Source: an uncultured Alphaproteobacteria bacterium
GTDB lineage: Bacteria > Pseudomonadota > Alphaproteobacteria > HIMB59 > GCA-002718135
DNA length: 64,000 nt
Assembly (NCBI GenBank): GCA_902614395.1
Contig: CACMKW010000001.1
Location: 164,199 to 228,198, forward strand
Direction of reading: 5' to 3'
The notes below the pieces were generated by a model, which did not search any database, was not told the origin of the DNA, and saw only the letters and a program-made list of their open reading frames with translations. Below, in pieces: positions 28,502-49,582 of the stretch; the stretch's first letter is position 1; every line of letters begins with the position of its first letter. The translations under genes were made by a program, and so were the position numbers.

Positions 28502-28524
28502 TTATAATTTTTAAAGGAAAACAT

Positions 28525-29091: not shown

Positions 29092-29097
29092 TAATTA

Positions 29098-29988: not shown

Positions 29989-31436
29989 ATACCGCCCATT
30001 GAAATATATTTTATAGTTAAATAATCATCAAGGCCATATCGAGAACCTTCTCTTCCCATTCCTGATTCTTTTACACCCCCAAAAGGAACTTCTGCAATTG
30101 TTGGTAGTCCATTATTAATAGATACAATGCCATATTCAAGTGCTTCGGCAACTCTCCAAATTCTTCCTATGTCTCTTGAATAGAAATATGAAGCTAATCC
30201 ATAAGGAGTATCATTAGCCATTTTAATCACTTCATCATCACTGGAAAATTTATAAAGAGGAGCAACAGGTCCAAATGTTTCTTCAAAAGTTATTTTTGCC
30301 TTTGTAGATACATTAGAGAGAACAGTTGGTTGATAGAAATTACCACCAAGCGAATGCACATCTCCACCAATTGCTATTTTAGCTCCTGTATTAACTGCGT
30401 CTTGTACATGATCAACTACTTTTTCTAAAGAGGATTGATCAATTAAAGGACCAGATGTAATTCCGTCTTCAAGTCCATTGCCTACTGTTATTTTACTGAC
30501 TTCATTTGTAAATTTTTCCAGGAATTCATCATAAATATTTTCATGCACAAATATTCTATTTGAACAAATACATGTTTGACCACTATTTCTAAATTTACTT
30601 TGAAGAGCTCCTGCAACAGCTTCATCCATATTTGCATCATCAAAAACAATAAATGGTGCGTGACCACCAAGTTCCATAGAAACTTTTTTTACTGTTGAGG
30701 CACTTTGCTCTAAAAGTATTTTTCCAACCTCCGTAGATCCAGTAAAAGAAATTTTTCTAACAATAGGATTGCTTGTTAGTTCTTTACCAATTTCACTTGC
30801 TGATCCAGTTATTACATTAAATACACCATCTGGAAAACCAGCTTCCTTAGCAAGTACTGCTAAAGCTAATGCTGAATAGGGTGTTTGGCTTGCTGGTTTA
30901 ACAACAGTAGTACAACCAACTGCTAGAGCGGCTGCACATTTTCTTGTTATCATTGAATTTGGAAAATTCCATGGAGTTATTGCTCCAACAACACCAACAG
31001 GTTGTTTAATTATTACAATTCTTTTTCCTGGTCTTGGATCAGGAACTATATCACCATACACTCTTTTTGCTTCTTCAGCATAGAATTCAATATATGAAGC
31101 ACCCATTAGTATTTCACCTTTTGCTTCAGCCAGAGGTTTACCTTGCTCAATAGTCATTATTTTAGCTAAATCATCTGCATTTTCTGTGATGAGTTCTCCC
31201 CACTTTTTTAGAATCATTGATCTTTCTTTCGCAGTAGTCTCTTTCCAAGTTTGGAAAGCAGTATTCGCATCTTCTATAGCTTTTTTAGTTTCTGAAACTG
31301 AGCATTTTGGGACGTTGCCAATAATTTCAAGAGAAGCTGGATTATTAACCTCAAGAGTTTCACCTGAAGAACTTTCAACCCATTCCCCATTTATAAAACA
31401 TTTTTGTTTAAAGAGTGATTTGTTATTTAATTCCAT
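29985..31436 (-). CDS. gabD: NAD(P)-dependent succinate-semialdehyde dehydrogenase family (GabD/DoeC-like)
   Basis: ITPWNFP, FTGSTEVG, MELGGHAP, FRNSGQTC, EETFGP, GREGS. Confidence 0.8.
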   Translation of the reverse strand: MELNNKSLFKQKCFINGEWVESSSGETLEVNNPASLEIIGNVPKCSVSETKKAIEDANTAFQTWKETTAKERSMILKKWGELITENADDLAKIMTIEQGKPLAEAKGEILMGASYIEFYAEEAKRVYGDIVPDPRPGKRIVIIKQPVGVVGAITPWNFPNSMITRKCAAALAVGCTTVVKPASQTPYSALALAVLAKEAGFPDGVFNVITGSASEIGKELTSNPIVRKISFTGSTEVGKILLEQSASTVKKVSMELGGHAPFIVFDDANMDEAVAGALQSKFRNSGQTCICSNRIFVHENIYDEFLEKFTNEVSKITVGNGLEDGITSGPLIDQSSLEKVVDHVQDAVNTGAKIAIGGDVHSLGGNFYQPTVLSNVSTKAKITFEETFGPVAPLYKFSSDDEVIKMANDTPYGLASYFYSRDIGRIWRVAEALEYGIVSINNGLPTIAEVPFGGVKESGMGREGSRYGLDDYLTIKYISMGGI

Positions 31437-31479
31437 ATGTTTTAATTATAATGCATAGTTTTAAATTAAGGAAAATATA

Positions 31480-32583
31480 ATGACAATAGTTAATTCTTGG
31501 AATGAATGGGATCCATTAAAACATGTTATAGTTGGGGCAGTTGAAAAAGCCAACATACCTCCAATGGAACCAGCGCTTGAACCAAAAATTAGTAAAGATA
31601 GTGGTATGGCAGGATCTCACGGACCACGATCGAAGGAGTCAATTGATAAAGCAAATATACAACTAGAAAACTTTGTTAAAATTTTAAATTCCCTAAATAT
31701 AAAAGTTGATAGACCAACAGCTATTGACTTTTCTCAGAGTATCGAGACACCCGATTGGTCTAATGATGGTATGTTTGGTTGTATGCCTCCTAGAGATGTT
31801 ATTCTTACTGTAGGAAATGAGATGCTAGAGGCGCCCATGTCTTACAGATGTAGATGGTTTGAGTACCTTGCTTATAGACCACTACTTGAAAAATATTATT
31901 CAGAAGATAAAAATATGAGATGGGAGTCGGCACCTAAACCAAGATTAACAAACCAATCTTATAAGTCTAATTATCTTCCTGAAGGCATAACGGAGGAAGA
32001 ACGATATAAAAAAATCGAAAATAGAGACATGATATTGACAGAAAAAGAACCACTTTTTGATGCAGCAGAAATTTTACGCTTTGGAAAAGATCTCTTTTAT
32101 CATAACAATTTTACATCAAATTTAAGCGGTTTAGATTGGTTAAGAAGACATTATCCAAATCATCGCATTCATCAAATTAATTTACCAGGTGATTTAATTC
32201 CAACTCACATAGATGCATGTTTTACTCCTATTAAACCAGGAGTTATAATCATTAATCCAAATAGAAAAATATCATCAGAGCAAAGAAAAATTTTCGATGA
32301 TAATAAATGGGAAATTCATGAAGCAGCACCTTCCATTCATAATAGTCCACCACCTATGTGTTATTCATCAATCTGGTTATCAATGAACGTTTTGATAATT
32401 GATCCTAAAACTATATGTGTTGAAGCAACTGAAGAAAAAATGATTAAACAAATGGAAAGTTTTGGATTGGAGGTTATCCCAGTTCCTTTTAGAGACGTTT
32501 ATGCGTTTGGTGGTAGTTTACATTGTGCCACTACTGATGTTTACAGAGAAGGTGAGTGTGAGGATTATTTTCCAAATCAATAA
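31480..32583 (+). CDS. Amidinotransferase (glycine/inosamine-phosphate amidinotransferase family)
   Basis: NSWNEWDPLKHVIVG, PPRD, FDAAE, HIDA, GGSLHC: the Asp-His-Cys triad is intact. Confidence 0.88.
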   Translation: MTIVNSWNEWDPLKHVIVGAVEKANIPPMEPALEPKISKDSGMAGSHGPRSKESIDKANIQLENFVKILNSLNIKVDRPTAIDFSQSIETPDWSNDGMFGCMPPRDVILTVGNEMLEAPMSYRCRWFEYLAYRPLLEKYYSEDKNMRWESAPKPRLTNQSYKSNYLPEGITEEERYKKIENRDMILTEKEPLFDAAEILRFGKDLFYHNNFTSNLSGLDWLRRHYPNHRIHQINLPGDLIPTHIDACFTPIKPGVIIINPNRKISSEQRKIFDDNKWEIHEAAPSIHNSPPPMCYSSIWLSMNVLIIDPKTICVEATEEKMIKQMESFGLEVIPVPFRDVYAFGGSLHCATTDVYREGECEDYFPNQ

Positions 32584-33338
32584 TGGATAGTTTTAATCAA
32601 AATAATATTAAAGCCAATTTACATGATACAAACTTTTCTAGAATTGGTATAATTACATTATCAACTGATTTTACTATTGAGCAGGATTTTAGAAAAATTT
32701 GCCATAATTTACCAGTTGATCTATTTTTTAATAGGATACCTTTTTTAAATCCTCTAACTCATGAAAATTATATGAGGATGGCTGATCATATTACAGAAAC
32801 AACAAACCAAATATTACCCAATGAAAAAATACAAGTTGTAGCGTATGGATGTACTTCGGGTACTATTGAGATTGGTGAAAAAAGAATAAGATCTGAAATT
32901 TTCAAAGCTAAACCTGATGCTTTAATTACGACACCTATTACAGCAGCTGTCAAAGCACTTAAATTGCTTAATCATAAAAAAATTGCTGTTCTTACCCCTT
33001 ATCCAAAAGATGTTAATATTAAAGTTTACGAATATTTAATTGATAGTGGATTTAAAATTAAATCATTTAGTTCGTTTAATTTAAATTATGATTCAGAAAT
33101 TGCCAAAGTTACTCACGACAGTTTAATGCAAACAATTTCCTCAATTGATTTAACAGATGTTGATAGTATTTTTGTTTCTTGTACTGCATTAAAAGTAATT
33201 GATATTATCGAAACATTAGAGTCAAAATTAAGCACAGATATTATTTCAAGTAATCAAGCTATTATTTGGGATTCATTAAGATTATCTAATATTAATCAAA
33301 AAATTGATGGTTTTGGTAACCTATTTAAATTACATTAA
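32583..33338 (+). CDS. eutA: EutA-like Asp/Glu racemase / maleate isomerase family protein
   Basis: RIGIITLSTD, YGCTSG, LTPY, FVSCTAL, SSNQA; two catalytic Cys; directly precedes eutB/eutC homologs. Confidence 0.7.
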   Translation: MDSFNQNNIKANLHDTNFSRIGIITLSTDFTIEQDFRKICHNLPVDLFFNRIPFLNPLTHENYMRMADHITETTNQILPNEKIQVVAYGCTSGTIEIGEKRIRSEIFKAKPDALITTPITAAVKALKLLNHKKIAVLTPYPKDVNIKVYEYLIDSGFKIKSFSSFNLNYDSEIAKVTHDSLMQTISSIDLTDVDSIFVSCTALKVIDIIETLESKLSTDIISSNQAIIWDSLRLSNINQKIDGFGNLFKLH

Positions 33339-33350
33339 ATAGGGTTTAAA

Positions 33351-34313
33351 TTGATTACACTTCAACAAATACAAGATGCACATAAGAAAATTTTACCTTA
33401 TGTTAATTATACACCATTAATTAATTCTAACTTCTTATCAAAAAGTAATAAAGTAAAACTAAAGTTAGAAAATTTTCAAATCACTGGTTCATTTAAGTTA
33501 AGAGGTGCGGTTAATAAGCTTCTTTCTTTAAATGAAGATGACAAAAGCAAAGGAGTCATTGCAGTTTCTACAGGCAATCACGGCAAAGGCGTTGCTTATG
33601 CTTCAAAGGTATTGGGCATTCAATCAACAATATATATGTCTTCAATGGTTCCAGAATATAGAAAAGAAGCTATTGAAAAATTAGGAGCAAAAGTAGAAAT
33701 TATTGGAAAGAATAGTGATGAAGCAGATTTGTATGCTAAACAAATTGCGAAAGAAAAAAATATCCCATTAATTCATCCTTTTGATGATGAAGATATTATT
33801 ATTGGTCAAGGTACAGTTGGCCTTGAAATGCTTAATGAGTTTCCTGAAGTTGATACTGTAATAATACCAACATCTGGAGGTGGTCTTATATCTGGAATAG
33901 CACAAGCTATTAAACTTCAAAAACCTGACACAAAAATTATCGCCGTATCTATGGAAAGAGGTCCTTCAATGTATGAAAGTCTAAAAAAAGGCAGACCTGT
34001 TGATGTAGAGGAAATTGAAACTTTAGCTGATTGTCTAGGGGGTAGTATTGGCTTAGATAATAAATTTACATTTAATATTGTACAACAATACGTTGATGAC
34101 TTTGTTTTAGTAAGTGAAGAAAAAATAGCTGAGGGAATTAGAATAAATTTTTTAGAACATAAAATTGTATCTGAAGGTGCTGCAGCAACTAGCGTAATGG
34201 TTGTTAAAGAAAAACTAACATCGCACTTAGGAAAAAATATAATCTGTTTAATTTGTGGTGGAAATATTGACTCGGAACTATTTAACAAAGTTTTAAGCTA
34301 TGCTCATCCTTAA
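33351..34313 (+). CDS. eutB: EutB-like PLP threonine-dehydratase family (hydroxyectoine utilization dehydratase)
   Basis: KLENFQITGSFKLRGA, STGNHG, SGGGL, TLADCLGG, EGAAA. Confidence 0.75.
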   Translation: MITLQQIQDAHKKILPYVNYTPLINSNFLSKSNKVKLKLENFQITGSFKLRGAVNKLLSLNEDDKSKGVIAVSTGNHGKGVAYASKVLGIQSTIYMSSMVPEYRKEAIEKLGAKVEIIGKNSDEADLYAKQIAKEKNIPLIHPFDDEDIIIGQGTVGLEMLNEFPEVDTVIIPTSGGGLISGIAQAIKLQKPDTKIIAVSMERGPSMYESLKKGRPVDVEEIETLADCLGGSIGLDNKFTFNIVQQYVDDFVLVSEEKIAEGIRINFLEHKIVSEGAAATSVMVVKEKLTSHLGKNIICLICGGNIDSELFNKVLSYAHP

Positions 34314-35274
34314 TAAAAATGATATTATTCAACATGTAAATTTGAATAAAAATCTCATACCAATAATAGAGGAGGCTTTTATAAGTTTATCAAAAAAATT
34401 GGTAATGATGCCACCTATAATGAGAATTGATATTGAAAAATATCATGGTGAATCTGATGTTAAAGCTGCATACGTTGAGGGTCTTGATAGTTTTGCAATA
34501 AAAATTGCTTCAGGTTTTTTTGATAATCCAAAACTTGGTCTACCATCTAGTAATGGACTGATGGTTTTATTAGATTCAAAGACTGGTGTTGTAAAATCTG
34601 TTCTATTGGATGAAGGTTATCTTACAGATACTAGAACAGCTATAGCAGGAGCAATAGCTACAAAATATTTATCAAATCAAAATGCTAATTCTGTTGGTAT
34701 TATTGGAGCTGGAATACAAGCCAAATTACAACTTCAAGCAATAATGTTAGTTAGAAAAATCAAAAAAATAATAGTCTGGACAAGAGATGAGACAAAAGCA
34801 AACCAATTTATCGAAGGTTTTAAAGATTTAGATTTAGATTTGCATGTAGCTTCTTCTTGCAAGGAGTTGGCAAGCTTATCAGAAATAATCGTTACAACGA
34901 CTCCTAGTAAAAAACCGCTTTTGGAATTTGATTGGATAATTAAAGGAACTCACATAACAGCAATGGGATCAGATACAGAACAAAAAAACGAATTAGATCC
35001 TCAGATGTTAAAACATTGCGATCAATATGTACCTGACAATCAATTACAAACAAGTGTTTTGGGTGAATTACATCATGCTTTAAAACAAAATATAATTTCT
35101 TCTAAAGAAAAATTTAATGAACTTGGCGATATTATTAACGATCCAAGCTTAGGAAGAAAAAATAAAGAGGATATAACAATATGTGATTTGACAGGAACTG
35201 GCGTACAAGATACTGCAATAGCAAGATTTGCTTATAATCTTTGTAAAACAAATAATTTAGGCATCAATATTTAA
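34300..35274 (+). CDS. eutC: EutC-like ornithine cyclodeaminase/mu-crystallin family protein
   Basis: MPPIMR..GESDVKAAY, GFFDNPKLGLPSSNGLM, GYLTDTRTA, CDLTGTGVQD. Confidence 0.8.
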   Translation: MLILNKNDIIQHVNLNKNLIPIIEEAFISLSKKLVMMPPIMRIDIEKYHGESDVKAAYVEGLDSFAIKIASGFFDNPKLGLPSSNGLMVLLDSKTGVVKSVLLDEGYLTDTRTAIAGAIATKYLSNQNANSVGIIGAGIQAKLQLQAIMLVRKIKKIIVWTRDETKANQFIEGFKDLDLDLHVASSCKELASLSEIIVTTTPSKKPLLEFDWIIKGTHITAMGSDTEQKNELDPQMLKHCDQYVPDNQLQTSVLGELHHALKQNIISSKEKFNELGDIINDPSLGRKNKEDITICDLTGTGVQDTAIARFAYNLCKTNNLGINI

Positions 35275-35277
35275 TTT

Positions 35278-36720
35278 ATGAGTCAAGCAATAATAAAAAA
35301 AACGTCTGATTACTTCAAATCAAAAGGAGTTGTCTTGCCAAGTATTAGTGAACTTCAAGACCCTCAAATTATTAATGATGATATTAAAAATTCTCTAAAA
35401 AAAATTAATAATAATGATATCAATCCTCTTAACCTCTTTAGAGTTCATTGGTTTAATAAAAGAGATCAATCAGGTTTTGGAAATGAGCCTGAATATATTG
35501 TGCTTCCAACAGAATTCACAGGTGTTAAGGCAAAGATAATTGTAAATATGGGACGATATTTTCCCTTAATAACAGCTCATAAAGTTTTGGCAGCTTATGG
35601 TTGTTTGCTTCCAAGAATATTAAATGGCACTTTTGATTATGAAAAACATAAAGCAGTTTGGCCTTCTACAGGAAATTATTGTAGGGGCGGAGTAGCAATA
35701 TCTCGGATAATGGGTCTTAATAGTATTGCAATACTTCCTGAAGGAATGAGTAATGAGAGATTTGAATGGTTGAATAATTGGGTTGAAGATAAAAAAAATA
35801 TCATAAAGACAAAAGGTACAGAAAGTAATGTTAAAGAAATTTACGATGCTTGTAATGAATTAAAAAAAGATAATCAAAATGATATCATAAATCAATTTGA
35901 TGAGTATTATAATTACAGTATTCATCGTTCTATAACGGGTCCATCTTTTGAAAAATCATTTCTTAAAGTTAAAGGTGACAGTAATTTAACTCCTAGGTTT
36001 TACGTAAGTGCTTCAGGATCAAGTGGTACTCTAGCAGCAGGAGATTATCTTAAAGATAAATTACAGACGAAGATTGCAGTTGTTGAAGCTTTGGAGTGCC
36101 CGACTTTGCTTCATGGAGGTTATGGTGAACATAATATACAAGGAATTGGTGACAAACATGTCCCCCTTATTCATAATGTAATGAATACAGATTTTGTCGT
36201 AGATGTTTCTGATCAAGCTACCAATAATCTAAATATGATTTTTAATACTGAAATAGGAAAAAAGTTTTTAATTGAGAAAAAAAATTTTGAACCTGATTTT
36301 GTTTCACGACTTCCTGAATTTGGCTTTTCAGCAATAGCAAATATCTTGGCATCAATAAAACTAGCTAAATATATGGATTTAAATAGTGACGACGCAATTA
36401 TAACGGTCGCTACAGATGGTGCAGATTTATACATGTCAGAGTTGAAAAAGACCATTGCTGATTTTAAAAATAATTATGATGAAATAGTTTGTGCTGAACT
36501 ATTTGGAAAACACTTATCAGGAATATCTACTGATAATATGATAGAACTTTCTTACATGGATAAGAAAAGAATATTTAATTTAGGGTACTTTACTTGGGTA
36601 GAGCAACAAGGTGTAAGTCTCGAAGAATTTGAAAAAAGAAATGATCAAAAATTTTGGAATTCACATTATGAATATATGCTTTCTCTAGACAATAAGATTA
36701 AAGAATTTAATAATATGTAG
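35278..36720 (+). CDS. Uncharacterised fold-type II PLP-dependent enzyme (480 aa)
   Basis: AHKV (PLP Lys), WPSTGNYCRGG, SGSSGT, HNIQGIGDKH, ATDG. Confidence 0.75.
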   Translation: MSQAIIKKTSDYFKSKGVVLPSISELQDPQIINDDIKNSLKKINNNDINPLNLFRVHWFNKRDQSGFGNEPEYIVLPTEFTGVKAKIIVNMGRYFPLITAHKVLAAYGCLLPRILNGTFDYEKHKAVWPSTGNYCRGGVAISRIMGLNSIAILPEGMSNERFEWLNNWVEDKKNIIKTKGTESNVKEIYDACNELKKDNQNDIINQFDEYYNYSIHRSITGPSFEKSFLKVKGDSNLTPRFYVSASGSSGTLAAGDYLKDKLQTKIAVVEALECPTLLHGGYGEHNIQGIGDKHVPLIHNVMNTDFVVDVSDQATNNLNMIFNTEIGKKFLIEKKNFEPDFVSRLPEFGFSAIANILASIKLAKYMDLNSDDAIITVATDGADLYMSELKKTIADFKNNYDEIVCAELFGKHLSGISTDNMIELSYMDKKRIFNLGYFTWVEQQGVSLEEFEKRNDQKFWNSHYEYMLSLDNKIKEFNNM

Positions 36721-36723
36721 GTT

Positions 36724-37878
36724 ATGAAAACTCAGTCATTACATAACCAATTAGTAGAATGGCGTCATGATCTTCATATGCACCCACAATTAAGTTTTGA
36801 AGAAGAGTATGCTGCAGCAAAAGTGTCAACACTTCTAAAAGAGTTTGGCATAGAAGTTCATTCTGGTATTGCTAGAACTGGAGTAGTTGGAATTTTAAAA
36901 AAAGGAAATAGCTCAAAATCAATAGGTATAAGAGCTGACATGGATGCTCTTCCTATACATGAAACTAATAAGTTTAGTTATAAGTCTAAGTTTGATAACA
37001 GAATGCATGCATGTGGACATGACGGTCACACAACAATGTTATTAGGTGCAGCAAAATATTTATCAGAAAAAGGTAACTTTAACGGAACGGTATATTTTAT
37101 TTTTCAACCTGATGAAGAGAATACATTCGGTGCAAGAACAATGATTGATGAAGGATTGTTTGATAAATTTAACATTGATGAAGTTTACGCTATGCACAAT
37201 ATTCCTAACATGGAAATTGGAACATTTGGTACAAGAAATGGAGCTATTACAGCCAGCGAAAATTTATTTGAAATTGAAATAAAAACTAAAGGGGGGCACG
37301 CTGCATTACCTCATATGGGGGTAGATGCAATAACTGTTGGTTCTCAAATAGCTGTAGCACTTCAATCGATAGTATCTAGGAAATTAAATCCAGCAGACAA
37401 TGGTATAGTGTCTATTACCGAATTTATAACCGATGGTAAAAAAAATGTTCTGCCAGGTATGGTAAAAATGACTGGTGACGCGAGAGCTTTATCAAAAGAA
37501 ACAAATGAAAAAATTGCTTCAAAAATTTTACAAATTGTCGAAGGGATTTGCAATGCACATGGTGTTAATGGTAGTGTTAAATATGAAACAGCCTGTCCTG
37601 TAACATTTAATTCAAAAAATCAAACTGAGTCTGCAACAAAAGCTGCAGTTTCTTTACTTGGTAGTGATAAATGTAATGGTAATATAGAACCACGTTTATT
37701 CTCAGAAGATTTTTCTCTTATGACAAATGAAAAACCTGGCTGCTTTGTTTTAATGGGTAACGGAACATCAGAGCAGCATTCCAGACCTTTACATGCTGAT
37801 AATTATGATTTTAATGACGAATTATTAGTCATAGGTTCTTCATATTGGACTGAATTGGTAGAACAACAATTAAAATAA
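36724..37878 (+). CDS. M20D amidohydrolase (N-acyl amino acid/hippurate hydrolase family)
   Basis: RADMDAL, MHACGHDGH, FQPDEE, GGHAALPH, SEDFS. Confidence 0.9.
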   Translation: MKTQSLHNQLVEWRHDLHMHPQLSFEEEYAAAKVSTLLKEFGIEVHSGIARTGVVGILKKGNSSKSIGIRADMDALPIHETNKFSYKSKFDNRMHACGHDGHTTMLLGAAKYLSEKGNFNGTVYFIFQPDEENTFGARTMIDEGLFDKFNIDEVYAMHNIPNMEIGTFGTRNGAITASENLFEIEIKTKGGHAALPHMGVDAITVGSQIAVALQSIVSRKLNPADNGIVSITEFITDGKKNVLPGMVKMTGDARALSKETNEKIASKILQIVEGICNAHGVNGSVKYETACPVTFNSKNQTESATKAAVSLLGSDKCNGNIEPRLFSEDFSLMTNEKPGCFVLMGNGTSEQHSRPLHADNYDFNDELLVIGSSYWTELVEQQLK

Positions 37879-39036
37879 ATGTTTTCTGAAAACTTAAATA
37901 AACTAAAGAAAAAAATGTCTGAGAACAATATTGATCTCTCAATTATAACTGATGATGACTCTATATATTATTTCACAGGATACCATGACTTCCTCCATAT
38001 GGATTTTTATCGACCAACATTATTAGTTGTTTCAAATGATCATAAAACTTATTTAATTACACCTCTTCTTGATGTTTTATTAGTACCAGAATCTTGTCCT
38101 GTAGATATGGTTGAAACATGGAATGATGGTATTGGAAATGAATGGAGAGAATTATTACCTCAAATCATTAATCAGCATAAAAATATTTTTATTGAAAAAT
38201 TTAAAATTAACCCAATGGTTAAGAGTTATTTAGACGAATTACTTCAAGACCATCCTGGGGATTTAACCAAATTAATCGATAATATAAGAATGATTAAATC
38301 TAATCATGAATTGAATATAGCTCGTCATGCTGGCGAAGTTGGTATGGCTATGATGGAGGCAGCAAAAAAAACAATTGGCCATAATGTTCCTGAGTATGAG
38401 GTTGCACTTGCACAATCACAAGCCGGAACAAGAAAAGCTGCAGATCTTTTAAAAGAATTTTATCCCGACAATATCAATATGTCTCCAAATATTCACTTTT
38501 TACCCGTTATGACATCGGGTCATGATTTACCTAAAACTCACCATCGTGCTTCAACCAAAATTATAAAAAAAGGTGATCCCGTATTCGTATGTTATTGTGG
38601 TTCTACAAATTTTCATAGGTTTAAATTAGGTTTTGACAGAATATTTTGGGTAGAAGAAATTCAATCCGATGAACAAATAAAAGCTTTTGAGACTGCAGTT
38701 AAATCTCAAAAAGCTGCTCTTGAAATTCTTGGCCCTGGAGTAACAGCTGAAGAAGTTCATGCTGCTTATGCAGATACTATACAGTCTGAGGGATACCCTT
38801 ATCCTACATTTCGATGTGGAAGAGGTACAGGCTTTAGCTTTTTAGAGGAACCACAATTAGTAGTTGGGAACAAAACAGTACTGGAGCCTGGAATGGTATT
38901 TGCCGTTGATGGCGGGGCAAGTGCAAATAATTTTAGATCACAAGTTGGTGATAGTTTTATTATAACAAAAGATGGATACGAACAAATTACACATCATTCT
39001 AAAAATATTAATGATCTAATAATTCCACATGGATGA
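37879..39036 (+). CDS. M24/creatinase-fold hydrolase lacking canonical metal ligands
   Basis: N-terminal creatinase domain (SIYYFTGY), RMIKS linker and pita-bread domain. RCGRGTG and FAVDGG replace H-x-x-GHG and EPG. Confidence 0.75.
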   Translation: MFSENLNKLKKKMSENNIDLSIITDDDSIYYFTGYHDFLHMDFYRPTLLVVSNDHKTYLITPLLDVLLVPESCPVDMVETWNDGIGNEWRELLPQIINQHKNIFIEKFKINPMVKSYLDELLQDHPGDLTKLIDNIRMIKSNHELNIARHAGEVGMAMMEAAKKTIGHNVPEYEVALAQSQAGTRKAADLLKEFYPDNINMSPNIHFLPVMTSGHDLPKTHHRASTKIIKKGDPVFVCYCGSTNFHRFKLGFDRIFWVEEIQSDEQIKAFETAVKSQKAALEILGPGVTAEEVHAAYADTIQSEGYPYPTFRCGRGTGFSFLEEPQLVVGNKTVLEPGMVFAVDGGASANNFRSQVGDSFIITKDGYEQITHHSKNINDLIIPHG

Positions 39037-40054
39037 AATCACACTATTTAACACTCATTGCTGTGGTGAAATTGGGGATGTCGTAACTGGAATTAAAGGC
39101 TTGAAGTTTAATTCACCTGAGGAAGCTTCTAAAAAACTTTTTTTAGATAAAAAGTGGAGAAATTTTTTTTTAAATGAACCTCGGGGAGGAGTCTTTAAAC
39201 ATTGTAATATTATTTTAGAACCTTCAAATAAAAATGCAGATGCTGGATTTGTAATTATGGAACCAGAAGATAATCCTCCAATGAGTGGATCAAATGCAAT
39301 TTGTGTAACAACAGTCTTATTAGAAAAAAATATTGTTCAAATGAAATATCCTAAAACCACGCTTACACTTGAAGCTCCCGGTGGTTTAATAAAAGTTGTT
39401 GCTGATTGTGAAAATAAGAAAGTTAAAAGTGTCACTTTAACTAATCTTGCCTGCTTTGCAGATAAAATAGATGTAGATTTAAAGACTAAAAATTATGGTA
39501 CAATTAAAGTAAGTACTGCTTTTGGAGGTGACAGTTTTTTAATTTGTAATGCTAGTGATTTTAATCTTAAAATTGAACCAAAGAATGCAAATAAATTTGT
39601 AAATGTTGCCAAAGAATTATTGAAAGAAGCAAACGCATCTATTGGGTTTGAACATCCTACTATTAAAGGATTAGACTATCTTTCCTTTTGCCAATTTATT
39701 GAACCCTTAAAAAAAAATAATCAATCATTACTTACAGGATTAAATACAGTTGTTATACGACCTGGGAAACTTGATCGCTCACCTTGTGGTACAGGTACTT
39801 CAGCAAGATTAGCAGTAATGAAAGAAAAAAATGAAATACAAATAAATGAAGAATTTATATCAAAGTCTATTATAGGATCTTCATTTAGAGCAAGTATTGA
39901 AAAAGAAATTAAAATTAATAACAAAAATTGTATTATTCCAAAAATAACAGGTAGTGCATTTATTACTGGAAAACAAAGTTTATATATCGATAAGGATGAT
40001 CCTTTTCCAGAAGGTTATAGATTAAATGACACATGGCCAGATTCAGCAAGTTAA
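39029..40054 (+). CDS. Proline racemase family protein (Ser/Cys type; hydroxyproline dehydratase/epimerase-like)
   Basis: HCCGEIGDV, NEPRGG, PPMSGSNAIC, EAPGGL, DRSPCGTGTSAR. Confidence 0.88.
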   Translation: MDEITLFNTHCCGEIGDVVTGIKGLKFNSPEEASKKLFLDKKWRNFFLNEPRGGVFKHCNIILEPSNKNADAGFVIMEPEDNPPMSGSNAICVTTVLLEKNIVQMKYPKTTLTLEAPGGLIKVVADCENKKVKSVTLTNLACFADKIDVDLKTKNYGTIKVSTAFGGDSFLICNASDFNLKIEPKNANKFVNVAKELLKEANASIGFEHPTIKGLDYLSFCQFIEPLKKNNQSLLTGLNTVVIRPGKLDRSPCGTGTSARLAVMKEKNEIQINEEFISKSIIGSSFRASIEKEIKINNKNCIIPKITGSAFITGKQSLYIDKDDPFPEGYRLNDTWPDSAS

Positions 40055-40130
40055 CTGTGATTAAATAACACTAGCTTGGCAAGTTAATTCATTTTACTTT
40101 CATCAACTATTCTAATAATTAATAAAACTA

Positions 40131-41396
40131 ATGACAAAATTTAATGCCTGGAATGTAATTAAAAACGGTTTAAATGGTCAGTCTTATTGGACTAGACAAT
40201 GGCGTGATCCAGAACCAAAAAGTATTTATGATGTTGTAATAATTGGGGGAGGTTTACACGGTCTTGCCACAGCATATTATTTAGCAAAGAATCATAATAT
40301 AAAAAATGTAGCTGTCTTAGAAAAAGGCTGGATTGGTGGAGGAAACGCTGGACGTAATACAACTATTGTAAGATCAAATTATATGATGCCAGGCAACCAC
40401 GAATTTTATGAACATTCTTTAAAGTTATGGGAAAATTTAAGTCACGAATTAAATTATAATGTAATGTTTAGCCAACGAGCTCATGTCTCGTTATTTCATA
40501 GCCCTGGTGCTAAAGATTCAGTTTCACGGATTTATAATATTATGCGACTCCACGGAACTGATGCAGAACTTTGGGATTTAAAAACTTTAAAGAAAAAAAT
40601 ACCGCATTTAAATTATCATAATTCTAGATTTCCAATACTTGGAGCTGCAGTTCAAAAAAGAGCAGGCAATGCAAGACACGATGCAGTTGCATGGGGTTAT
40701 GCAAGGGCTGCAGATACATTAGGTGTAGACATTCTTCAAAATTATGAAGTTACAGGTTTTACAAGAAAGAATGGAAATATTGAAAGTATTCAAACTTCAA
40801 GAGGAATTATAAAAGGAAAGAAAATAGGATTTGCTGTTGCAGGCAATACTTCAGTTTTATGGCAAATGGCAGAATTAGGTAATTTGCCAATTGAGTCTCA
40901 TAAATTACAAGCATTTGTATCTGAGGCAGTTAAACCACTTCTAGATCAGGTTGTTGTTTACGGTGTAGGTGGCGCACATTTCTATATATCGCAGTCTGAT
41001 AAAGGAAGCATGGTATTTGGTGGCGATCTTGACTGGTATAAATCATATGCGCAAAGAGGAAATCTTCCTATGGTTCAAGATGTTGCCGAAGCGGCTATGG
41101 CAATATTTCCTTCACTTGGAAGAATAAGATTACTTCGTCATTGGGCAGGTGTTATGGATATGACAATGGACGGATCATTTTTTATTTGTAAAACGCCAAT
41201 ATCTAATCTCTATTTAAATGCTGGTTGGAACTATGGAGGTTTTAAAGCTAGTCCAGCATCCGGTTGGTATTTTGCTGACTTAATTGCAAATGAAAGCCCG
41301 CATAACTACGTGCAAAATCATAATTTAGAAAGATTTGAAAAAGGTATCAATATTGATGAACGTGGCGCAGGACCTGATCCGAAATTGCACGGTTAA
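40131..41396 (+). CDS. soxB: Heterotetrameric sarcosine oxidase family beta subunit
   Basis: IIGGGLHGLATAYYLA, GGNAGRNTT, ARHDAVAW, GGFKA. Confidence 0.92.
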   Translation: MTKFNAWNVIKNGLNGQSYWTRQWRDPEPKSIYDVVIIGGGLHGLATAYYLAKNHNIKNVAVLEKGWIGGGNAGRNTTIVRSNYMMPGNHEFYEHSLKLWENLSHELNYNVMFSQRAHVSLFHSPGAKDSVSRIYNIMRLHGTDAELWDLKTLKKKIPHLNYHNSRFPILGAAVQKRAGNARHDAVAWGYARAADTLGVDILQNYEVTGFTRKNGNIESIQTSRGIIKGKKIGFAVAGNTSVLWQMAELGNLPIESHKLQAFVSEAVKPLLDQVVVYGVGGAHFYISQSDKGSMVFGGDLDWYKSYAQRGNLPMVQDVAEAAMAIFPSLGRIRLLRHWAGVMDMTMDGSFFICKTPISNLYLNAGWNYGGFKASPASGWYFADLIANESPHNYVQNHNLERFEKGINIDERGAGPDPKLHG

Positions 41397-41681
41397 ATGA
41401 TTAGAATCAATTGTCCTTATTGTGGTGAAAGAGATCATAGTGAATTTAGCTATGGAGGAGATGCAACAATCAATTATCCTTCGTTAGATGCATCTGAGAA
41501 AGAATGGACTGAAGCTATATTTTTTAGAAAAAACATAAAAGGGTTTCAATTTGAAACATGGCATCATTCGAATGGATGTAGAATGTGGTTAGTGGTTGAA
41601 CGTTCTACAGTCACTCATGAAATAAAAAGTGTCAAACCATGCCATCCAAATTTACAGAAGGTTGTAGAAAATAATAAATGA
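41397..41681 (+). CDS. soxD: Sarcosine oxidase family delta subunit
   Basis: CPYCGER..EFSYGG, WHHSNGCRMW. Confidence 0.92.
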   Translation: MIRINCPYCGERDHSEFSYGGDATINYPSLDASEKEWTEAIFFRKNIKGFQFETWHHSNGCRMWLVVERSTVTHEIKSVKPCHPNLQKVVENNK

Positions 41682-44635
41682 AAACACGAAGATTAGATAA
41701 CTATGGAAAAATTAATAGAGATAAAATTTTATCCTTTAGTTGGGATAAAAAAAATTACAAAGGTTTTGAAGGAGATACACTAGCATCGGCATTACTAGCA
41801 AATAATATCGGCATAGTTGGTAGAAGCTTTAAATATCATAGACCAAGGGGAATATTTTCTAGTGGAGTCGAGGAATCTGGCGCCTTAGTTACAATTGGTT
41901 CAAAAGATAGAAGAGATCCAAATGTAAGAGCAACAACACAAGAATTATATAATGGTTTGGAAGCAAGTGGTCAAAATGCATTTCCAAATGTAAATTTTGA
42001 TCTAGCTGGAATAAATAATTACTTAGGCAGGTTTTTTGCAGCTGGTTTTTATTATAAAACTTTTATGGGAATACCTCCACTTGAATGGGGTAAAGGAACA
42101 GCCATATGGATGTTTTTTGAAAAATTTATTAGAAAAGCGGCGGGAATGGGAAGTGCTTCTGGGTTACCTGATCCTGATACTTATGAGCATGCTCATGATT
42201 TTTGTGATTTAATTGTTGTAGGATCAGGACCTGCTGGTGTTGCAGCTGCATTAGAGGCAGCAGAAAAAAAATTAGATGTTATTTTAGTTGAGCAAGATAG
42301 TCTTATTGGAGGAAATCAACTTGCAGAAAATGATTTTGATAACTCACAAATTAAAAATCAACTTGAAAATCTAGGCATAAAAATAATGACTAGAACTACT
42401 GCATTCGGATTATATGATAATTGTGTTGTCGGTTTATTAGAGAGAGTAACAGACCATTTATCAGCACCAAATGTAAACATTCCACGCCAAAGATTTTGGA
42501 CCATTAGAGCAAAGCATATAATTGTTGGTGCTGGAGCAATTGAAAGACACATTGCATTTAATAATAATGATATTCCTGGTGTAATGACTGTAAATGCATC
42601 AAAGCATTATTTGAATAGATATGGTGTACTAACAGGAAAAAGAATTGTGATAGCTACAAATAATGATTCTGTTTATGAAACAGCACATCAATTATCAGAA
42701 GCTGGGGCCAATGTAACTGTTCTTGATTCACGAACTAATTTTGAAATTGAGACAAATAAAAGTTTTGAAATTAGAAAAGGGTATGTACCTTATAATATTA
42801 ACGGTTCAAAAAAAATTGATAGTTTAGATATATCAAAAAATGAAACTATTAATAAATCTGAAACTATAAATTGTGATCAGGTTCTATTATCAGGTGGCTG
42901 GTCACCTGCTGTACATTTGTTATCTCACAGAGGCGTAAAGCCTAAATGGGATTATAACAATGCTTGTTTTTTACCAAGTGACACAAAAGAAAATATTACA
43001 ATGGTAGGTTCTTCTAGAGGTTTATGGAATAAAAATGATTGTATTGCTTCTGGGATAGCAGGAACTACTGATGCGTTGAACCGTTTAGGTATTTCTAAAA
43101 CAAATTATTTTTTCCCAAAACCTGGTGGATGGAAAAATCCCATACAACCACTTTATGAAGTAAAATATAAAAAATCTAGATCAAAAAGTTTTGTAGATTA
43201 TCAACATGATGTAACAACAGATGACGTAAGACTCGCACATCGTGAAGGTTTCATTTCGGTAGAGCATCTTAAAAGATACACAACTTTAGGTATGGCAAAC
43301 GATCAAGGAAAAATGGGAAATATCATTGGATTGTCTTTAATGGCTGAACTTTTAAATAAAGAAATTCCAGAAGTTGGAACTACTGTTTTTAGACCTCCTT
43401 ATACTCCTGTATCTATAGGTGCCTTAAGCGGAAGAAATGTTGGAAAACATTTTAGGCCGTTAAGAGTAACGCCAATGCATCAATGGAATATTGATCATGG
43501 TGCAAAAATGATTGAAGTTGGATTGTATCAAAGACCTTGGTATTATCCCAAAGAAAATGAAACTTTAAGTGACTCTTATATAAGAGAAGCATCAACTGTA
43601 AGAAAAACAGTTGGAATTTGTGATGTAACATCATTAGGCAAAATAGCTATTCAAGGACCAGACTCTACCGAATTTTTAAATAGAATTTATTCGAATGATT
43701 TTTCAAAACTACAAGTTGGAAAAGCTAGATACGGTATCATGTTGCGTGATGACGGTATTGTAATGGATGATGGCACGTCTTGGAGATTAGCAGAAAATGA
43801 ATATTTTATGACGACGTCTACAGGTGAAGCTGCAAAAGTGATGTCATGGTTAGAAGAATTACTTCAAACTAGATGGACAGATCTTAATGTTAATGTGACT
43901 AGTGTTTCTGAACAATGGGCAGGCGTATCAGTTGCAGGACCTAAATCTAGAGAAGTTCTCAATAATTGTGTCGATGATTCTTTGGTTGTAACTAATAATA
44001 ACTTACCTTTTATGGGTGTTACTTCAACATTTCTTAAAGGTAATATTCCCTGTAGAATTGCAAGAATTAGTTTTTCAGGTGAATTAGCTTTTGAAGTTTA
44101 TGTCAAATCAGATTTTGCTAATACAATGATGGACCTACTTTGGGCAAATGCAAAAAAATATGATGGATGTTTATATGGATTAGAAGCTTTAGGCGCACTT
44201 AGAGTTGAAAAAGGTCATGTAACAGCCGCTGAGCTTGATGGAAGGGTAACAATTGATGATGCAGGTTTAAGCAAAATGGCTTCTACAAAAAAATCATATA
44301 TTGGAAGCGCAATGAGAAAAAGAGGAGTATTAAAAAATAATGATCGAGAAATTCTAGTAGGCTTCTTTCCTACAAACCTAAAAGAAACTTTTAATGCTGG
44401 AACTATTGTCTGTGAAAAAAATAATATTAAAGGACAGGGTATCGGAAGAATTACTTCAGTTACTTATTCTCCTGAACTTGGACATTGGATTGGATTAGGT
44501 TTTGTCAAGGGTGGTTTAGATAAATGGAAAGATACCAATTTAGTTGGGGCAGATCCTGTAAGAAATAAACAAATGAATTTAAAAGTTGTTTCACCACATA
44601 TGATTGATCCTAAAGGAGAACGAATGTATGCATAG
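41678..44635 (+). CDS. soxA: Sarcosine oxidase family alpha subunit
   Basis: GDTLASALLA, RSFKYHRPRG, EHLKRYTTLGM..DQGK, C-terminal GcvT-like domain (RISFSGELAFE). Confidence 0.93.
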   Translation: MKTRRLDNYGKINRDKILSFSWDKKNYKGFEGDTLASALLANNIGIVGRSFKYHRPRGIFSSGVEESGALVTIGSKDRRDPNVRATTQELYNGLEASGQNAFPNVNFDLAGINNYLGRFFAAGFYYKTFMGIPPLEWGKGTAIWMFFEKFIRKAAGMGSASGLPDPDTYEHAHDFCDLIVVGSGPAGVAAALEAAEKKLDVILVEQDSLIGGNQLAENDFDNSQIKNQLENLGIKIMTRTTAFGLYDNCVVGLLERVTDHLSAPNVNIPRQRFWTIRAKHIIVGAGAIERHIAFNNNDIPGVMTVNASKHYLNRYGVLTGKRIVIATNNDSVYETAHQLSEAGANVTVLDSRTNFEIETNKSFEIRKGYVPYNINGSKKIDSLDISKNETINKSETINCDQVLLSGGWSPAVHLLSHRGVKPKWDYNNACFLPSDTKENITMVGSSRGLWNKNDCIASGIAGTTDALNRLGISKTNYFFPKPGGWKNPIQPLYEVKYKKSRSKSFVDYQHDVTTDDVRLAHREGFISVEHLKRYTTLGMANDQGKMGNIIGLSLMAELLNKEIPEVGTTVFRPPYTPVSIGALSGRNVGKHFRPLRVTPMHQWNIDHGAKMIEVGLYQRPWYYPKENETLSDSYIREASTVRKTVGICDVTSLGKIAIQGPDSTEFLNRIYSNDFSKLQVGKARYGIMLRDDGIVMDDGTSWRLAENEYFMTTSTGEAAKVMSWLEELLQTRWTDLNVNVTSVSEQWAGVSVAGPKSREVLNNCVDDSLVVTNNNLPFMGVTSTFLKGNIPCRIARISFSGELAFEVYVKSDFANTMMDLLWANAKKYDGCLYGLEALGALRVEKGHVTAAELDGRVTIDDAGLSKMASTKKSYIGSAMRKRGVLKNNDREILVGFFPTNLKETFNAGTIVCEKNNIKGQGIGRITSVTYSPELGHWIGLGFVKGGLDKWKDTNLVGADPVRNKQMNLKVVSPHMIDPKGERMYA

Positions 44636-45191
44636 ACATTCTGCACTAGAAACAATTTATAAGGTTGGAAAATATTCATCAAGTGAGAAACAATCCCTAA
44701 AATTTAAAGAATTAAAAAGTTTAGAAATTTTGCAAATTGCTTGTTGGCCTGACAAAATTGATGAAATGAATAATTTACTATCAAAAGAACTAAAAATTAA
44801 AAATATTCCTAGTTTTAATAAAGGGATAATTTTTGAAAATAAATCATTATGGAGAATGGAACCTTTGAAATGGTGGCTATTTAATAAAGAAATTGAAATA
44901 AGTGAGCAAATCGCAACAATTTTAGACATGTCTCATGCTTTCACAGGTATTGAAATTACAGGAGATAATTCATCATTATTTTTAAATAGACATCTTCCAA
45001 TTGATTTAAGAGCTAGGAATTTTCCAGATTTATCTTCTGCTAGCACAGCTATTCATCATGTAAGTATTAAGCTATTTAAAATATCTTCCAATAGCTACTG
45101 TCTATATATACCAAGAGGTTTTGCTTTATCAATTTGGGAGATCCTTCTTGAAACAGCGGATCAGTTTGGATACGAAGTATTAGAGAGATAG
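44628..45191 (+). CDS. soxG: Sarcosine oxidase family gamma subunit
   Basis: Start revised to ATG 44628 behind AAGGAG. DMSHA, PIDLR, PRGFALSIWE; follows soxA. Confidence 0.85.
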   Translation: MHRHSALETIYKVGKYSSSEKQSLKFKELKSLEILQIACWPDKIDEMNNLLSKELKIKNIPSFNKGIIFENKSLWRMEPLKWWLFNKEIEISEQIATILDMSHAFTGIEITGDNSSLFLNRHLPIDLRARNFPDLSSASTAIHHVSIKLFKISSNSYCLYIPRGFALSIWEILLETADQFGYEVLER

Positions 45192-45227
45192 ATAGATTAT
45201 CTTAGAGTAACGGAAACTGGTTATAAA

Positions 45228-45247
45228 CTAATTACTAATGTAATTAG
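45228..45247. terminator. Hairpin between convergent soxG and DUF3726 gene
   Basis: CTAATTAC-TAAT-GTAATTAG, a perfect 8-bp stem. No clear U tract. Confidence 0.35.
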
Positions 45248-45265
45248 CGATTTGCATATAGTAAA

Positions 45266-45946: not shown

Positions 45947-45951
45947 AGATA

Positions 45952-47616: not shown

Positions 47617-47670
47617 TTATTAAATATCTATAGTTAATTTTGGTTTTTTCATTAATAGAAGTATTAATCT

Positions 47671-49532: not shown

Positions 49533-49561
49533 TTGACTATTTGTTTTCATGCAGTTATTCA
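49533..49561 (+). promoter_or_regulatory. Putative sigma70 promoter for ABC importer
   Basis: TTGACT(49533-49538)-N17-TATTCA(49556-49561), 21 nt before the ATG at 49583. Confidence 0.45.
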
Positions 49562-49582
49562 AGCTTCATTACAAAATATATT

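Follow-up and report, generated by a model that had tools for sequence, protein, structure and literature searches.

Layout and Eut-like core of the array

The window analyzed here, a whole stretch of 64,000 nucleotides, corresponds to positions 164199-228198 of contig C1 in the genome of an uncultured alphaproteobacterium (1.35 Mb in 28 contigs, estimated to be 78% complete) and has a G+C content of approximately 30%. It contains an array of catabolic genes that is headed by an amidinotransferase gene and includes homologs of the ectoine utilization genes eutA, eutB, and eutC. Eight genes of one orientation occupy 31480-40054 (31480-32583, 32583-33338, 33351-34313, 34300-35274, 35278-36720, 36724-37878, 37879-39036, and 39029-40054), and adjoining genes either overlap (by 1, 14, and 8 nt) or are spaced by 12, 3, 3, and 0 nt. 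They encode an amidinotransferase, EutA-, EutB-, and EutC-like proteins, a pyridoxal-phosphate (PLP) enzyme, an M20 amidohydrolase, an M24 hydrolase, and a proline-racemase homolog. After a gap of 76 nt, a soxBDAG set begins with soxB at 40131 and ends at 45191, while an aldehyde dehydrogenase (ALDH) gene (29985-31436, minus strand) diverges from the amidinotransferase gene at a distance of 43 nt. The original prediction, made from the sequence of the window, had described eight abutting genes followed by soxBDAG with a divergent GabD-like ALDH, and our list of open reading frames (ORFs) reproduces its coordinates exactly. All 12 genes that are left in the array are uninterrupted reading frames.

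The second, third, and fourth genes, which like the rest of the array lie on the plus strand, form the Eut-like core. We found that the Eut models are the top-scoring NCBIfam families for all three products, and that these are 30-51% identical to the EutA, EutB, and EutC proteins flanking canonical EutD. The EutA-like protein (32583-33338) belongs to the Asp/Glu/hydantoin-racemase superfamily (Pfam Amdase, 77 bits), scores 209 bits on TIGR02990 (cut-off 318), and shares 30-32% identity with the EutA proteins of canonical loci. The EutB-like protein (33351-34313), a predicted PLP-dependent beta-hydroxy-amino-acid dehydratase, has NF005680 as its best-scoring family (377 bits, cut-off 413), reaches 350 bits on TIGR02991 (cut-off 413), and is 43-45% identical to canonical EutB. 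The EutC-like protein (34300-35274) is a member of the ornithine-cyclodeaminase (OCD) family, either an imine reductase or a cyclodeaminase; it passes the generic 'cyclodeaminase' model NF006141 (451 bits, cut-off 408), scores 410 bits on TIGR02992 (cut-off 472), and is 48-51% identical to canonical EutC. The divergent ALDH is of the succinate-semialdehyde dehydrogenase (SSADH) type (TIGR01780, 732 bits, cut-off 646) and 45-46% identical to the ALDHs of two canonical eutD loci, and it is a candidate counterpart of Ssd/DoeC, which would convert aspartate-semialdehyde to aspartate. Part of a review describes a divergent group of ectoine-inducible genes, including an SSADH gene, in S. meliloti.

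We found neither EnuR, AsnC, nor another regulator family among the 22 ORFs of 26223-50671 (Pfam and NCBIfam), no Rfam family within 25000-52000, and no excess of promoter or terminator consensus sites over shuffled sequence. The array is present in RNA libraries. Fourteen seawater metatranscriptome runs contain 30-46% of the sampled words of the operon, and RNA contigs from four runs of four studies cover 29-30 of the 30 bins of 29900-46100. These contigs span six junctions (eutB/eutC, eutC/PLP, PLP/M20, M20/M24, M24/proline racemase, and proline racemase/soxB), which is consistent with co-transcription of the array. Contig depth cannot rank the genes and was not used for that purpose.

Taken together with the related genomes described below, these data lead us to propose, at a probability of roughly 65%, that the array is a non-canonical and modular operon for the utilization of ectoine, a stress protectant of algae, and 5-hydroxyectoine (i.e., of the Ehu/Eut type), in a lineage-specific variant found in a genus of the SAR11 order.

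Conservation, module loss, and ectoine-type genes in relatives

We called ORFs at the best 80 of 246 confirmed loci of the PLP protein, compared them with the proteins of the window, and restricted the neighborhood counts to loci with sufficient flanking DNA. The related loci come from assemblies of single cells and metagenomes that carry the label uncultured Alphaproteobacteria or Pelagibacteraceae. Upstream of the PLP gene we found eutC (61 of 70 loci), eutB (61 of 69), eutA (56 of 66), and the amidinotransferase gene (55 of 65), which the ALDH gene adjoins at 52 of 62 loci; downstream we found the genes for M20 (63 of 75), M24 (58 of 74), the proline-racemase homolog (50 of 71), soxB (51 of 67), and soxG (44 of 56). 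These counts are not independent because 59 of the 80 loci form a single clade in which the PLP protein is at least 90% identical. The full gene order is kept at five loci (L070, L073, L074, L075, and L077) at which the PLP protein is 74-80% and the array proteins are 54-88% identical. The co-occurrence whose absence would have refuted the original prediction is thus borne out, and a chance assembly is contradicted. Indeed, a juxtaposition of unrelated catabolic genes by chance is extremely improbable: several members are separately deletable, as one might expect of such a collection, but the order holds where the proteins are just 60-80% identical, starts and stops overlap, and RNA contigs bridge the junctions. 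In a sample of 36 incomplete genomes of the same genus, the PLP and M24 genes were each found in 28 and the amidinotransferase gene in 30, while the 24 genomes sampled from another genus of this order yielded none of these genes.

The gene content of the array varies between strains, with M24, the proline-racemase homolog, and sox as add-on modules that can be lost separately. Four loci (L042, L044, L045, and L052) show a clean deletion of the proline-racemase gene, which L088 lacks as well. The array stops after the M20 gene at five loci (L043, L050, L051, L053, and L063), which keep the amidinotransferase, EutABC, PLP, and M20 genes without M24 and sox; at L043 and L050, homology with the window ends at 37883 and restarts at the downstream ABC transporter at 74% nucleotide identity. 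One locus, L093, keeps only eutA-eutB-eutC and the PLP gene.

A search with the EutD model (TIGR02993) returned a gene scoring 460-477 bits, against a cut-off of 613, in 16 of the 36 same-genus genomes and in none of the 24 genomes of the other genus. This eutD-like gene begins approximately 22 nt after soxG and is present at 19 of the 45 loci with room for it, including the partial copies with which L077 and L090 end; it also occurs in the lineages of L074 and L075, which are just 73-74% identical. Its product shares 43-45% identity with four canonical EutD proteins (719-799 bits) that flank eutABC. At the six active-site columns of the M24 family, the residues of this product (H/E/A/Y/M/S) follow the pattern of canonical EutD (H/E/P/Y/M-or-I/T), compared with H/D/D/H/E/E in a prolidase of the same genome, H/N/A/H/E/H in a true creatinase, and H/C/G/R/D/G in the M24 protein of the window. 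In the window, the last 21 codons and the stop of this ectoine-hydrolase-type gene remain as a 3' remnant at 45202-45269 (plus strand); the remnant translates to RVTETGYKLITNVISDLHIVN followed by the stop, versus RVTESGYELLTQVPRDLHLVN and the stop in relatives. Blastn places a clean break at approximately 45202, where six loci (L052, L042, L045, L018, L049, and L047) carry approximately 1.1 kb of extra sequence. The host genome has no other EutD copy, the best TIGR02993 matches being 57 and 41 bits. The loss of the EutD-type hydrolase is therefore a strain-level deletion and no design feature of the pathway. The original prediction had proposed a rewired ectoine-type cluster; the eutD-like gene of relatives, the conserved order, and the Ehu transporter of one relative (see below) speak for such a cluster, while the part of the proposal in which the pathway was built to work without EutD did not stand. 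In an unrelated alphaproteobacterium, a true creatinase gene (L121, G206:C3, 8325-9536; 683 bits to PDB 7yto) is divergent beside canonical EutD, a further M24 gene, and eutA, so that creatine and ectoine hydrolases co-localize elsewhere.

We considered whether the array of the window strain is a decaying remnant that lost coherent function along with its hydrolase and transporter. The deletion of the eutD-like gene, the other presence/absence polymorphisms (i.e., deletion of the proline-racemase gene and truncation after M20), and the lack of an Ehu transporter in the window and its genome would all fit decay. Set against this, the 12 remaining genes are all intact frames, the eutD-less form is common to 25 other loci with 93-100% protein identity across genes, and the genes are present in RNA libraries. 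Streamlined genomes such as this one of 1.35 Mb seldom keep dead operons. We therefore regard decay as highly unlikely.

Ehu-type transporter genes provide further evidence for an ectoine-type operon. In G011, a genome of the same genus, the ALDH gene is followed by the amidinotransferase gene, eutA, eutB, and eutC, a block consisting of a BisC-like molybdoenzyme gene and ehuA-ehuB-ehuC-ehuD, and then the genes for the PLP enzyme, M20, M24, the proline-racemase homolog, Ldh_2, soxBDAG, and the eutD-like protein. Apart from the ALDH and Ldh_2 genes this array lies on one strand, and ehuD ends one base ahead of the PLP gene. The G011 EhuA, EhuB, EhuC, and EhuD proteins score 388, 290, 236, and 273 bits, all above the NCBIfam equivalog cut-offs for ectoine/hydroxyectoine transport (345, 191, 197, and 205, respectively). 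A second relative, G004 (locus type L072/L066), carries an inverted block between amidinotransferase-eutA and eutB that contains ehuBCDA (A, C, and D above their cut-offs; B at 163 bits, below 191), an ArgE-type M20 gene, and glutamine-amidotransferase-like and BisC-like genes, followed by two more M24 genes that reach 231 and 190 bits on 'DoeA_2', a model for ectoine hydrolases. Furthermore, in two Pelagibacteraceae single-cell genomes (L082 and L086) an EhuABCD-like operon is divergent beside the PLP gene, with A, C, and D passing and B at 158-162 bits. A MOSC gene stands between this operon and the PLP gene at both loci; L086 also has a PhyH-family dioxygenase gene, and its amidinotransferase gene lies immediately 3' of the PLP gene. 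EhuD exceeds its cut-off in only 2 of the 36 genus genomes. No EhuB was found above its cut-off in the host genome (best 43 bits) or in four relatives; Ueh/TRAP transporters were not searched for.

Molybdenum enzymes accompany the Ehu-type transporters beside the PLP gene at L149 (G011; 5421-7715), L148 (G004; 963-3248), L086 (8292-9071), and L082 (9145-9924). They are either S/N-oxide reductases of the BisC/TorA family (861-910 bits, below 1018) or MOSC-domain proteins, a hint that the solute has an N-oxide or N-hydroxy form, or that compounds like trimethylamine N-oxide (TMAO) are used alongside it. At L086, the PLP and amidinotransferase genes are followed at 11517-21258 by genes for EamA, a 2OG-Fe(II) oxygenase, a luciferase-like monooxygenase, an Xsc/acetolactate-synthase-like TPP enzyme, AA_synth, an alpha/beta hydrolase, and an ALDH, and there are no eut genes within 21 kb. 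At this locus, the same Ehu-like transporter may supply a different route.

Lower pathway and accessory enzymes

The original prediction had noted that EutE and a DoeD/Atf-type transaminase are missing from the array, and neither was found above cut-offs in the host genome or in four relatives, one of which is 96% complete. For EutE (TIGR02994) there was no match in the host genome and none above the cut-off in five genomes of the genus (best 94 bits, cut-off 403). The diaminobutyrate transaminase (TIGR00709) was likewise not found above its cut-off in five genus genomes, including G268 (the 96% complete genome, which carries the eutD-like gene) and G011 and G004, which carry Ehu; the EctB-type transaminase (TIGR02407), searched for in the host genome only, was not found above its cut-off either. 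The best transaminase matches were 152-173 bits against cut-offs of 402 and 552 (TIGR00709 and TIGR02407). Similarly, no canonical set of eutD, eutE, and doeD was found elsewhere in the host genome that might complement its eutABC-like genes. Since EutE and diaminobutyrate transaminase were not found above cut-offs, the genus seems to be without the textbook lower pathway. Class-III aminotransferases of 120-173 bits are encoded elsewhere in these genomes and could be moonlighting substitutes. One class-III aminotransferase-like match of approximately 457 amino acids (G000:C5:14325-15617 in the host genome, and also in G268 and G021) contains one in-frame TAA in all three genomes, which may reflect two adjacent genes, a conserved break, or recoding.

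The family assignments confirm that an M20 amidohydrolase and a fold-type II PLP enzyme belong to the operon, as had been predicted. The M20 protein (36724-37878, plus strand; TIGR01891, 322 bits, cut-off 154) is no closer to 'DoeB2' (NF038260, cut-off 550) than to CpsA (cut-off 500), scoring 318 bits on each, and is a candidate N-acetyl-diaminobutyrate deacetylase.

The PLP enzyme (35278-36720, plus strand) is a protein of 480 amino acids whose CysK/CBS-like core is extended at both termini (Pfam PALP, 33 bits; TIGR01139, 73 bits, cut-off 351). Its AlphaFold model has a pLDDT of 91, and the top Foldseek matches are CysK, OASS, CBS, and beta-cyanoalanine synthase (TMt approximately 0.8, 20-26% identity). 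Twenty homologs all share the SGSSGT loop and the Lys of the AHK motif. A PDB sequence search returned CysK-type chains only, at E values of 2e-13 or higher, and the protein-atlas matches are unnamed PALP clusters only. The enzyme has at least 8000 database relatives whose names, if any, are 'cysteine synthase' or 'hypothetical', and the protein is 66-80% identical among metagenome-assembled genomes labelled Pelagibacteraceae, 'MarineAlpha5', SAR116, and Rhodobacteraceae. We rejected its assignment as a cysteine synthase (CysK/CysM) since it has the fold alone in common with these enzymes and its TIGR01139 score is far below the cut-off. Its nearest solved folds, OASS, CBS, and beta-cyanoalanine synthase, suggest chemistry at C-beta. 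A threonine-synthase-like gamma-eliminase acting on diaminobutyrate is disfavored, the nearest folds being CysK, CBS, and beta-cyanoalanine synthase.

In other genomes, the PLP gene follows a Dpp-type ABC operon (L084) or stands beside EamA transporter genes (L080, L081, L083, L127, and L128). The neighbors of nine more distant homologs (L124-L132) point to no shared pathway; only arginase-family and EamA genes recur. Among other alphaproteobacteria, an EutD-type match accompanies a PLP homolog in the same genome in 6 of 11 cases at E≤1e-60 and in 5 of 11 at E≤1e-100, versus 25 of 201 genomes drawn class-wide at that threshold; given that the genes are non-adjacent, the numbers small, and the genomes related, this is a weak hint. 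We conclude that the substrate of the PLP enzyme is probably an imported compound resembling an amino acid. The gene of this enzyme has the closest ties to eutB-eutC and to Ehu transporters, and the enzyme is the leading candidate for the step between diamino acid and aldehyde, with the amidinotransferase as another candidate. More tentatively, the PLP enzyme, possibly with the Arg/Orn-type amidinotransferase, might provide a novel, transaminase-independent disposal of the diamino acid from ectoines (diaminobutyrate, 3-hydroxy-diaminobutyrate, or a close analog); we consider this possible rather than probable. Elimination by a PLP enzyme in place of transamination, as suggested in the original prediction, is a hypothetical step.

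The amidinotransferase that, as predicted, heads the operon (31480-32583, plus strand) is of the AGAT (L-arginine) type: it scores 256 bits to PDB 1jdw/1jdx over residues 4-364, with the HIDA, PRD, FDAA, and LHC motifs aligned, and has no match in Pfam or NCBIfam at 1e-5. We take its kept LHC, HIDA, and FDAA motifs to supply the catalytic Cys-His-Asp residues known for AGAT, and its kept Arg and Ser-Ser positions are presumably those that hold the amino-acid end of arginine or ornithine in AGAT structures. An 'arginase bypass', in which the amidinotransferase and M24 stand in for arginase, is weakened by the arginase-family gene that the genome has of its own.

Given these features, we asked whether the substrate might instead be an undescribed ectoine-like cyclic guanidino or N-oxidized amidine solute, or a guanidino amino acid, from which the amidinotransferase or a ureohydrolase would strip the amidino group while the PLP enzyme would degrade the diamino acid. 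The residues kept at the AGAT Arg/Orn site would suit such a substrate, as would the arginase-family genes that neighbor PLP homologs at L089, L127, and L128, the MOSC or BisC-like molybdoenzymes beside PLP homologs (L082, L086, G011, and G004), the acidic residues of the window M24 near two creatinase Glu positions, and the Eut and EhuB-like scores slightly below equivalog cut-offs in most lineages. However, these low scores perhaps reflect just a fast-evolving, AT-rich lineage, the EhuABCD of G011 pass all four ectoine-specific cut-offs, and the EutD-like protein has the canonical EutD residue signature. We know of no cyclic guanidino or N-oxidized amidine solute of this kind, and none surfaced in literature searches, which were not designed to find one. 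On balance a guanidino-type solute appears unlikely, and an ectoine-type solute remains the reading we prefer.

The M24 protein of the window (37879-39036, plus strand; Pfam Peptidase_M24 and Creatinase_N) is a 'pita-bread' hydrolase of a distinct subfamily without canonical metal ligands. Its ligand columns are conserved in 9 orthologs, and its best PDB matches are prolidase 1pv9 (70 bits), creatinase 1chm (61), and DoeA 6twk (37), with creatinase 7yto at 31. The original prediction had called it a metal-free, non-EutD M24 protein; the EutD signature is indeed missing, while 'metal-free' does not separate it from EutD because canonical EutD is likewise without the prolidase metal ligands. We rejected it as a creatinase ortholog, since true creatinases score 579-683 bits where it reaches 61 (1chm) and 31 (7yto). 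A role as a urea-releasing amidinohydrolase is plausible because the conserved His is kept, acidic residues lie near the two creatinase Glu positions, and the genome encodes a urease (968 bits, cut-off 680).

The sox genes of the array are assigned to soxBDAG, as predicted, with SoxB and SoxA above and SoxD and SoxG below their family cut-offs, and the set is the second and more divergent of two paralogs. The array copies of soxB (40131-41396; TIGR01373, 600 bits, cut-off 529), soxD (41397-41681; TIGR01374, 104, cut-off 116.5), soxA with its folate-binding GCV_T domain (41678-44635; TIGR01372, 1174, cut-off 1164), and soxG (44604-45191; TIGR01375, 51, cut-off 144), all on the plus strand, score lower on all four Sox models than the other set at C1:103595-108189 (710, 123, 1329, and 72 bits, respectively). 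That canonical soxBDAG lies in a one-carbon and glycine-betaine demethylation island (G000:C1:91000-110900, L107) together with genes for formate-tetrahydrofolate ligase, a DMGDH-like protein, ETF alpha/beta, an ETF-QO-like protein, and a DmdA-like aminomethyltransferase. Two paralogous sox operons in SAR11 were remarked on earlier, in a part of PMC9321204.

The M24 and sox genes bear on a further alternative, a glycine-yielding guanidinoacetate/creatine pathway in which the amidinotransferase would pass the amidino group of guanidinoacetate to ornithine, M24 would serve as creatinase, Sox would convert sarcosine to glycine, and the Eut-like genes would be merely co-located. The AGAT homology of the amidinotransferase would fit this pathway, and so would the Creatinase_N domain, missing metal ligands, and conserved His of M24, the complete soxBDAG with a folate domain, the urease of the genome, and the true creatinase that adjoins canonical EutD at L121. 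Passages of PMC3686209 and PMC9321204 also report SAR11 with genes for creatine and glycine betaine use and two sox operons. Yet M24 differs from true creatinase in signature and in score (61 bits to 1chm versus 579), and a canonical sarcosine oxidase is encoded elsewhere in the genome. Moreover, five loci (L043, L050, L051, L053, and L063) keep amidinotransferase-EutABC-PLP-M20 without M24 and sox, and the PLP gene is most consistently accompanied by eutB and eutC (61 of approximately 70 each), with L093 retaining eutA-eutB-eutC-PLP and not the amidinotransferase, M24, and Sox genes. A creatine pathway is thus improbable as the function of an array whose constant part is Eut-like, and we return to the ectoine-type operon below.

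The eighth gene (39029-40054, plus strand) encodes a member of the proline-racemase superfamily, of the hydroxyproline epimerase or dehydratase type, with a Ser/Cys pair in the motifs MSGSN and SPCGTG (Pfam Pro_racemase, 329 bits; NF047722 t3HypD, 416, cut-off 550; PDB 4k8l, 350; 4k7g, a t3HypD, 315). PMC4113996 reports 4HypE activity for a Ser/Cys enzyme and assigns a Ser/Thr enzyme as t3HypD. An Ldh_2 (MLD2) gene comes right after the proline-racemase gene at L066, L070, L072, and L090 and in G011, the same pairing as that of trans-3-hydroxyproline dehydratases with Pyr2C reductases described there (PMC4113996).

Upstream of the array, gshA, gshB, bioY, and a ROK-family kinase gene (26223-29988) are syntenic with it at most loci, down to approximately 65-75% identity, and a functional link is not evident. 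Downstream (45266-49517) lie genes for a DUF3726 protein (238 amino acids, minus strand), a 554-amino-acid protein without a Pfam or NCBIfam match (minus), an M19 dipeptidase-family protein (plus), and an EamA transporter (minus); they form a conserved unit, since all four follow the array in G011 and the first two follow it in G004 (49-92% identity). The region at 49541-60792 looks like an amine or polyamine catabolic island, with a PotA-type ABC transporter whose binding protein is unassigned, a DadA-like FAD oxidoreductase, two ALDHs, a GlnA-like (gamma-glutamyl-amine synthetase-like) protein, and a 4-hydroxybutyrate-dehydrogenase-like Fe-ADH. This region is hypervariable, as its transporter part is just 64-74% identical in nucleotide sequence in strains L043 and L050.

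A proposed ectoine-type pathway and its meaning

The substrates and reactions that follow are our interpretation of what the sequences show, namely which genes are present and in which order, how far they are conserved, where insertions and deletions lie, and that they occur in RNA libraries. In the complete form of the operon, as found in relatives, the Ehu-type ABC transporter would import the solute and the EutD-like M24 hydrolase would open the tetrahydropyrimidine ring to give N-acetyl-diaminobutyrate, which the M20 amidohydrolase, in place of the EutE/DoeB deacetylase, would convert to diaminobutyrate. The EutA-, EutB-, and EutC-like proteins might remove the 3-hydroxyl of the hydroxyectoine-derived intermediate by epimerization, PLP-dependent dehydration, and imine reduction. 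The diamino acid would then be turned into an aldehyde, with the CysK-fold PLP enzyme and the Arg/Orn-type amidinotransferase as candidates for the step, and the divergent SSADH-type ALDH would convert the semialdehyde to aspartate. The M24 protein, the proline-racemase homolog, and the second soxBDAG may be add-ons for nitrogen-rich solutes, contributing creatinase-like amidino or amide hydrolysis and the use of hydroxyproline and N-methyl amino acids, respectively. The operon of the window strain cannot open ectoine by an EutD-type enzyme and would therefore depend on its M24 and another transporter, or on ring-opened (e.g., N-acetyl-diaminobutyrate) or other substrates.

Compared with known Ehu/Eut ectoine clusters, the array shares the eutA-eutB-eutC order, an SSADH-type ALDH, and a single long co-oriented layout and, in relatives, an M24 hydrolase of the EutD type and an Ehu ABC transporter (G011 and G004). 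It differs in that EutE, Atf/DoeD, EnuR, and AsnC are absent among the 22 ORFs scanned, an M20 protein takes the place of the deacetylase, and the eutD-like gene, which the window strain has lost, comes last at the 3' end; the amidinotransferase, the 480-amino-acid PLP enzyme, a second M24, the proline-racemase homolog, and soxBDAG are extra. With the doe clusters, doeABXCD of Halomonas elongata and doeBDAC of Methylotuvimicrobium alcaliphilum (as given in part of PMC7192451), it shares the implied logic of ring hydrolase, deacetylase, and semialdehyde dehydrogenase, while DoeD is missing and the deacetylase candidate is an M20-family protein that reaches 318 of the 550 bits required for 'DoeB2'. 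Systems that pair creatinase with heterotetrameric sarcosine oxidase (creatine to sarcosine to glycine) resemble it in an M24 without metal ligands upstream of soxBDAG with a folate domain, but here M24 is not a creatinase ortholog and sox is the divergent paralog. The trans-3-hydroxyproline (t3HypD) systems resemble it in a proline-racemase-family gene with Ser first, the adjacent Ldh_2 gene of relatives, and an OCD-family gene in the operon; unlike them, it has a Ser/Cys pair rather than Ser/Thr or Cys/Thr, a score below the t3HypD cut-off, and no set of DAAO, DHDPS, and KGSA dehydrogenase. SbnA/SbnB and CmnB/CmnK are pairs of a CysK-like PLP enzyme and an OCD-family dehydrogenase that make 2,3-diaminopropionate. 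The abutting CysK-fold and OCD-family genes of the array recall them, while the SbnA and SbnB scores are 25 and 104 bits and the context here is catabolic.

Several points weigh against an ectoine-type operon. The window itself is without an intact EutD-like gene, Ehu, EutE, and DoeD, and the Ehu transporter, which exceeds its cut-off in so few genomes of the genus, leaves uptake in the main clade unexplained. The amidinotransferase, M24, proline-racemase homolog, and Sox play no part in known ectoine chemistry, and the roles assigned to the array proteins rest on sequence, a structure model, and context. All Eut-like scores, that of the EutD-like protein included, are below equivalog cut-offs, except for that of the EutC-like protein on the generic 'cyclodeaminase' model. 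The modeled CysK-type fold favors C-beta chemistry, which is not readily reconciled with a gamma-amino substrate such as diaminobutyrate. Furthermore, PLP homologs of 50-55% identity sit without eut genes, and those at L089, L127, and L128 adjoin arginase-family genes, which suggests guanidino chemistry. Finally, co-transcription is not proven because a contig from an RNA library need not correspond to a single transcript and may stem from carried-over DNA.

We found no paper describing this cluster or a SAR11 ectoine route in our literature search. In the accessible part of a 2026 survey of EutD evolution, SAR11 appears in the reference list only and Pelagibacter is never mentioned. Bacteria of the SAR11 order are the most numerous marine heterotrophs. 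Ectoine is listed, in part of PMC13012070, among the largest phytoplankton exometabolite contributions to excreted dissolved organic carbon. If the operon is of the ectoine type, its genes would name the means by which an abundant lineage consumes ectoines, the textbook EutE and DoeD would prove replaceable, and two proteins, the widespread 480-amino-acid PLP enzyme and the bacterial AGAT homolog, would be singled out for new enzymology. Should the PLP enzyme indeed catalyze a transaminase-independent step, bacteria of the SAR11 order would degrade ectoines through a lower pathway that is new to biochemistry. The presence/absence polymorphisms of the array (i.e., the eutD-like gene, ehu, the proline-racemase gene, and the M24-sox block) would furthermore offer, as a natural experiment, a way to study how strains that occur together partition their niches.

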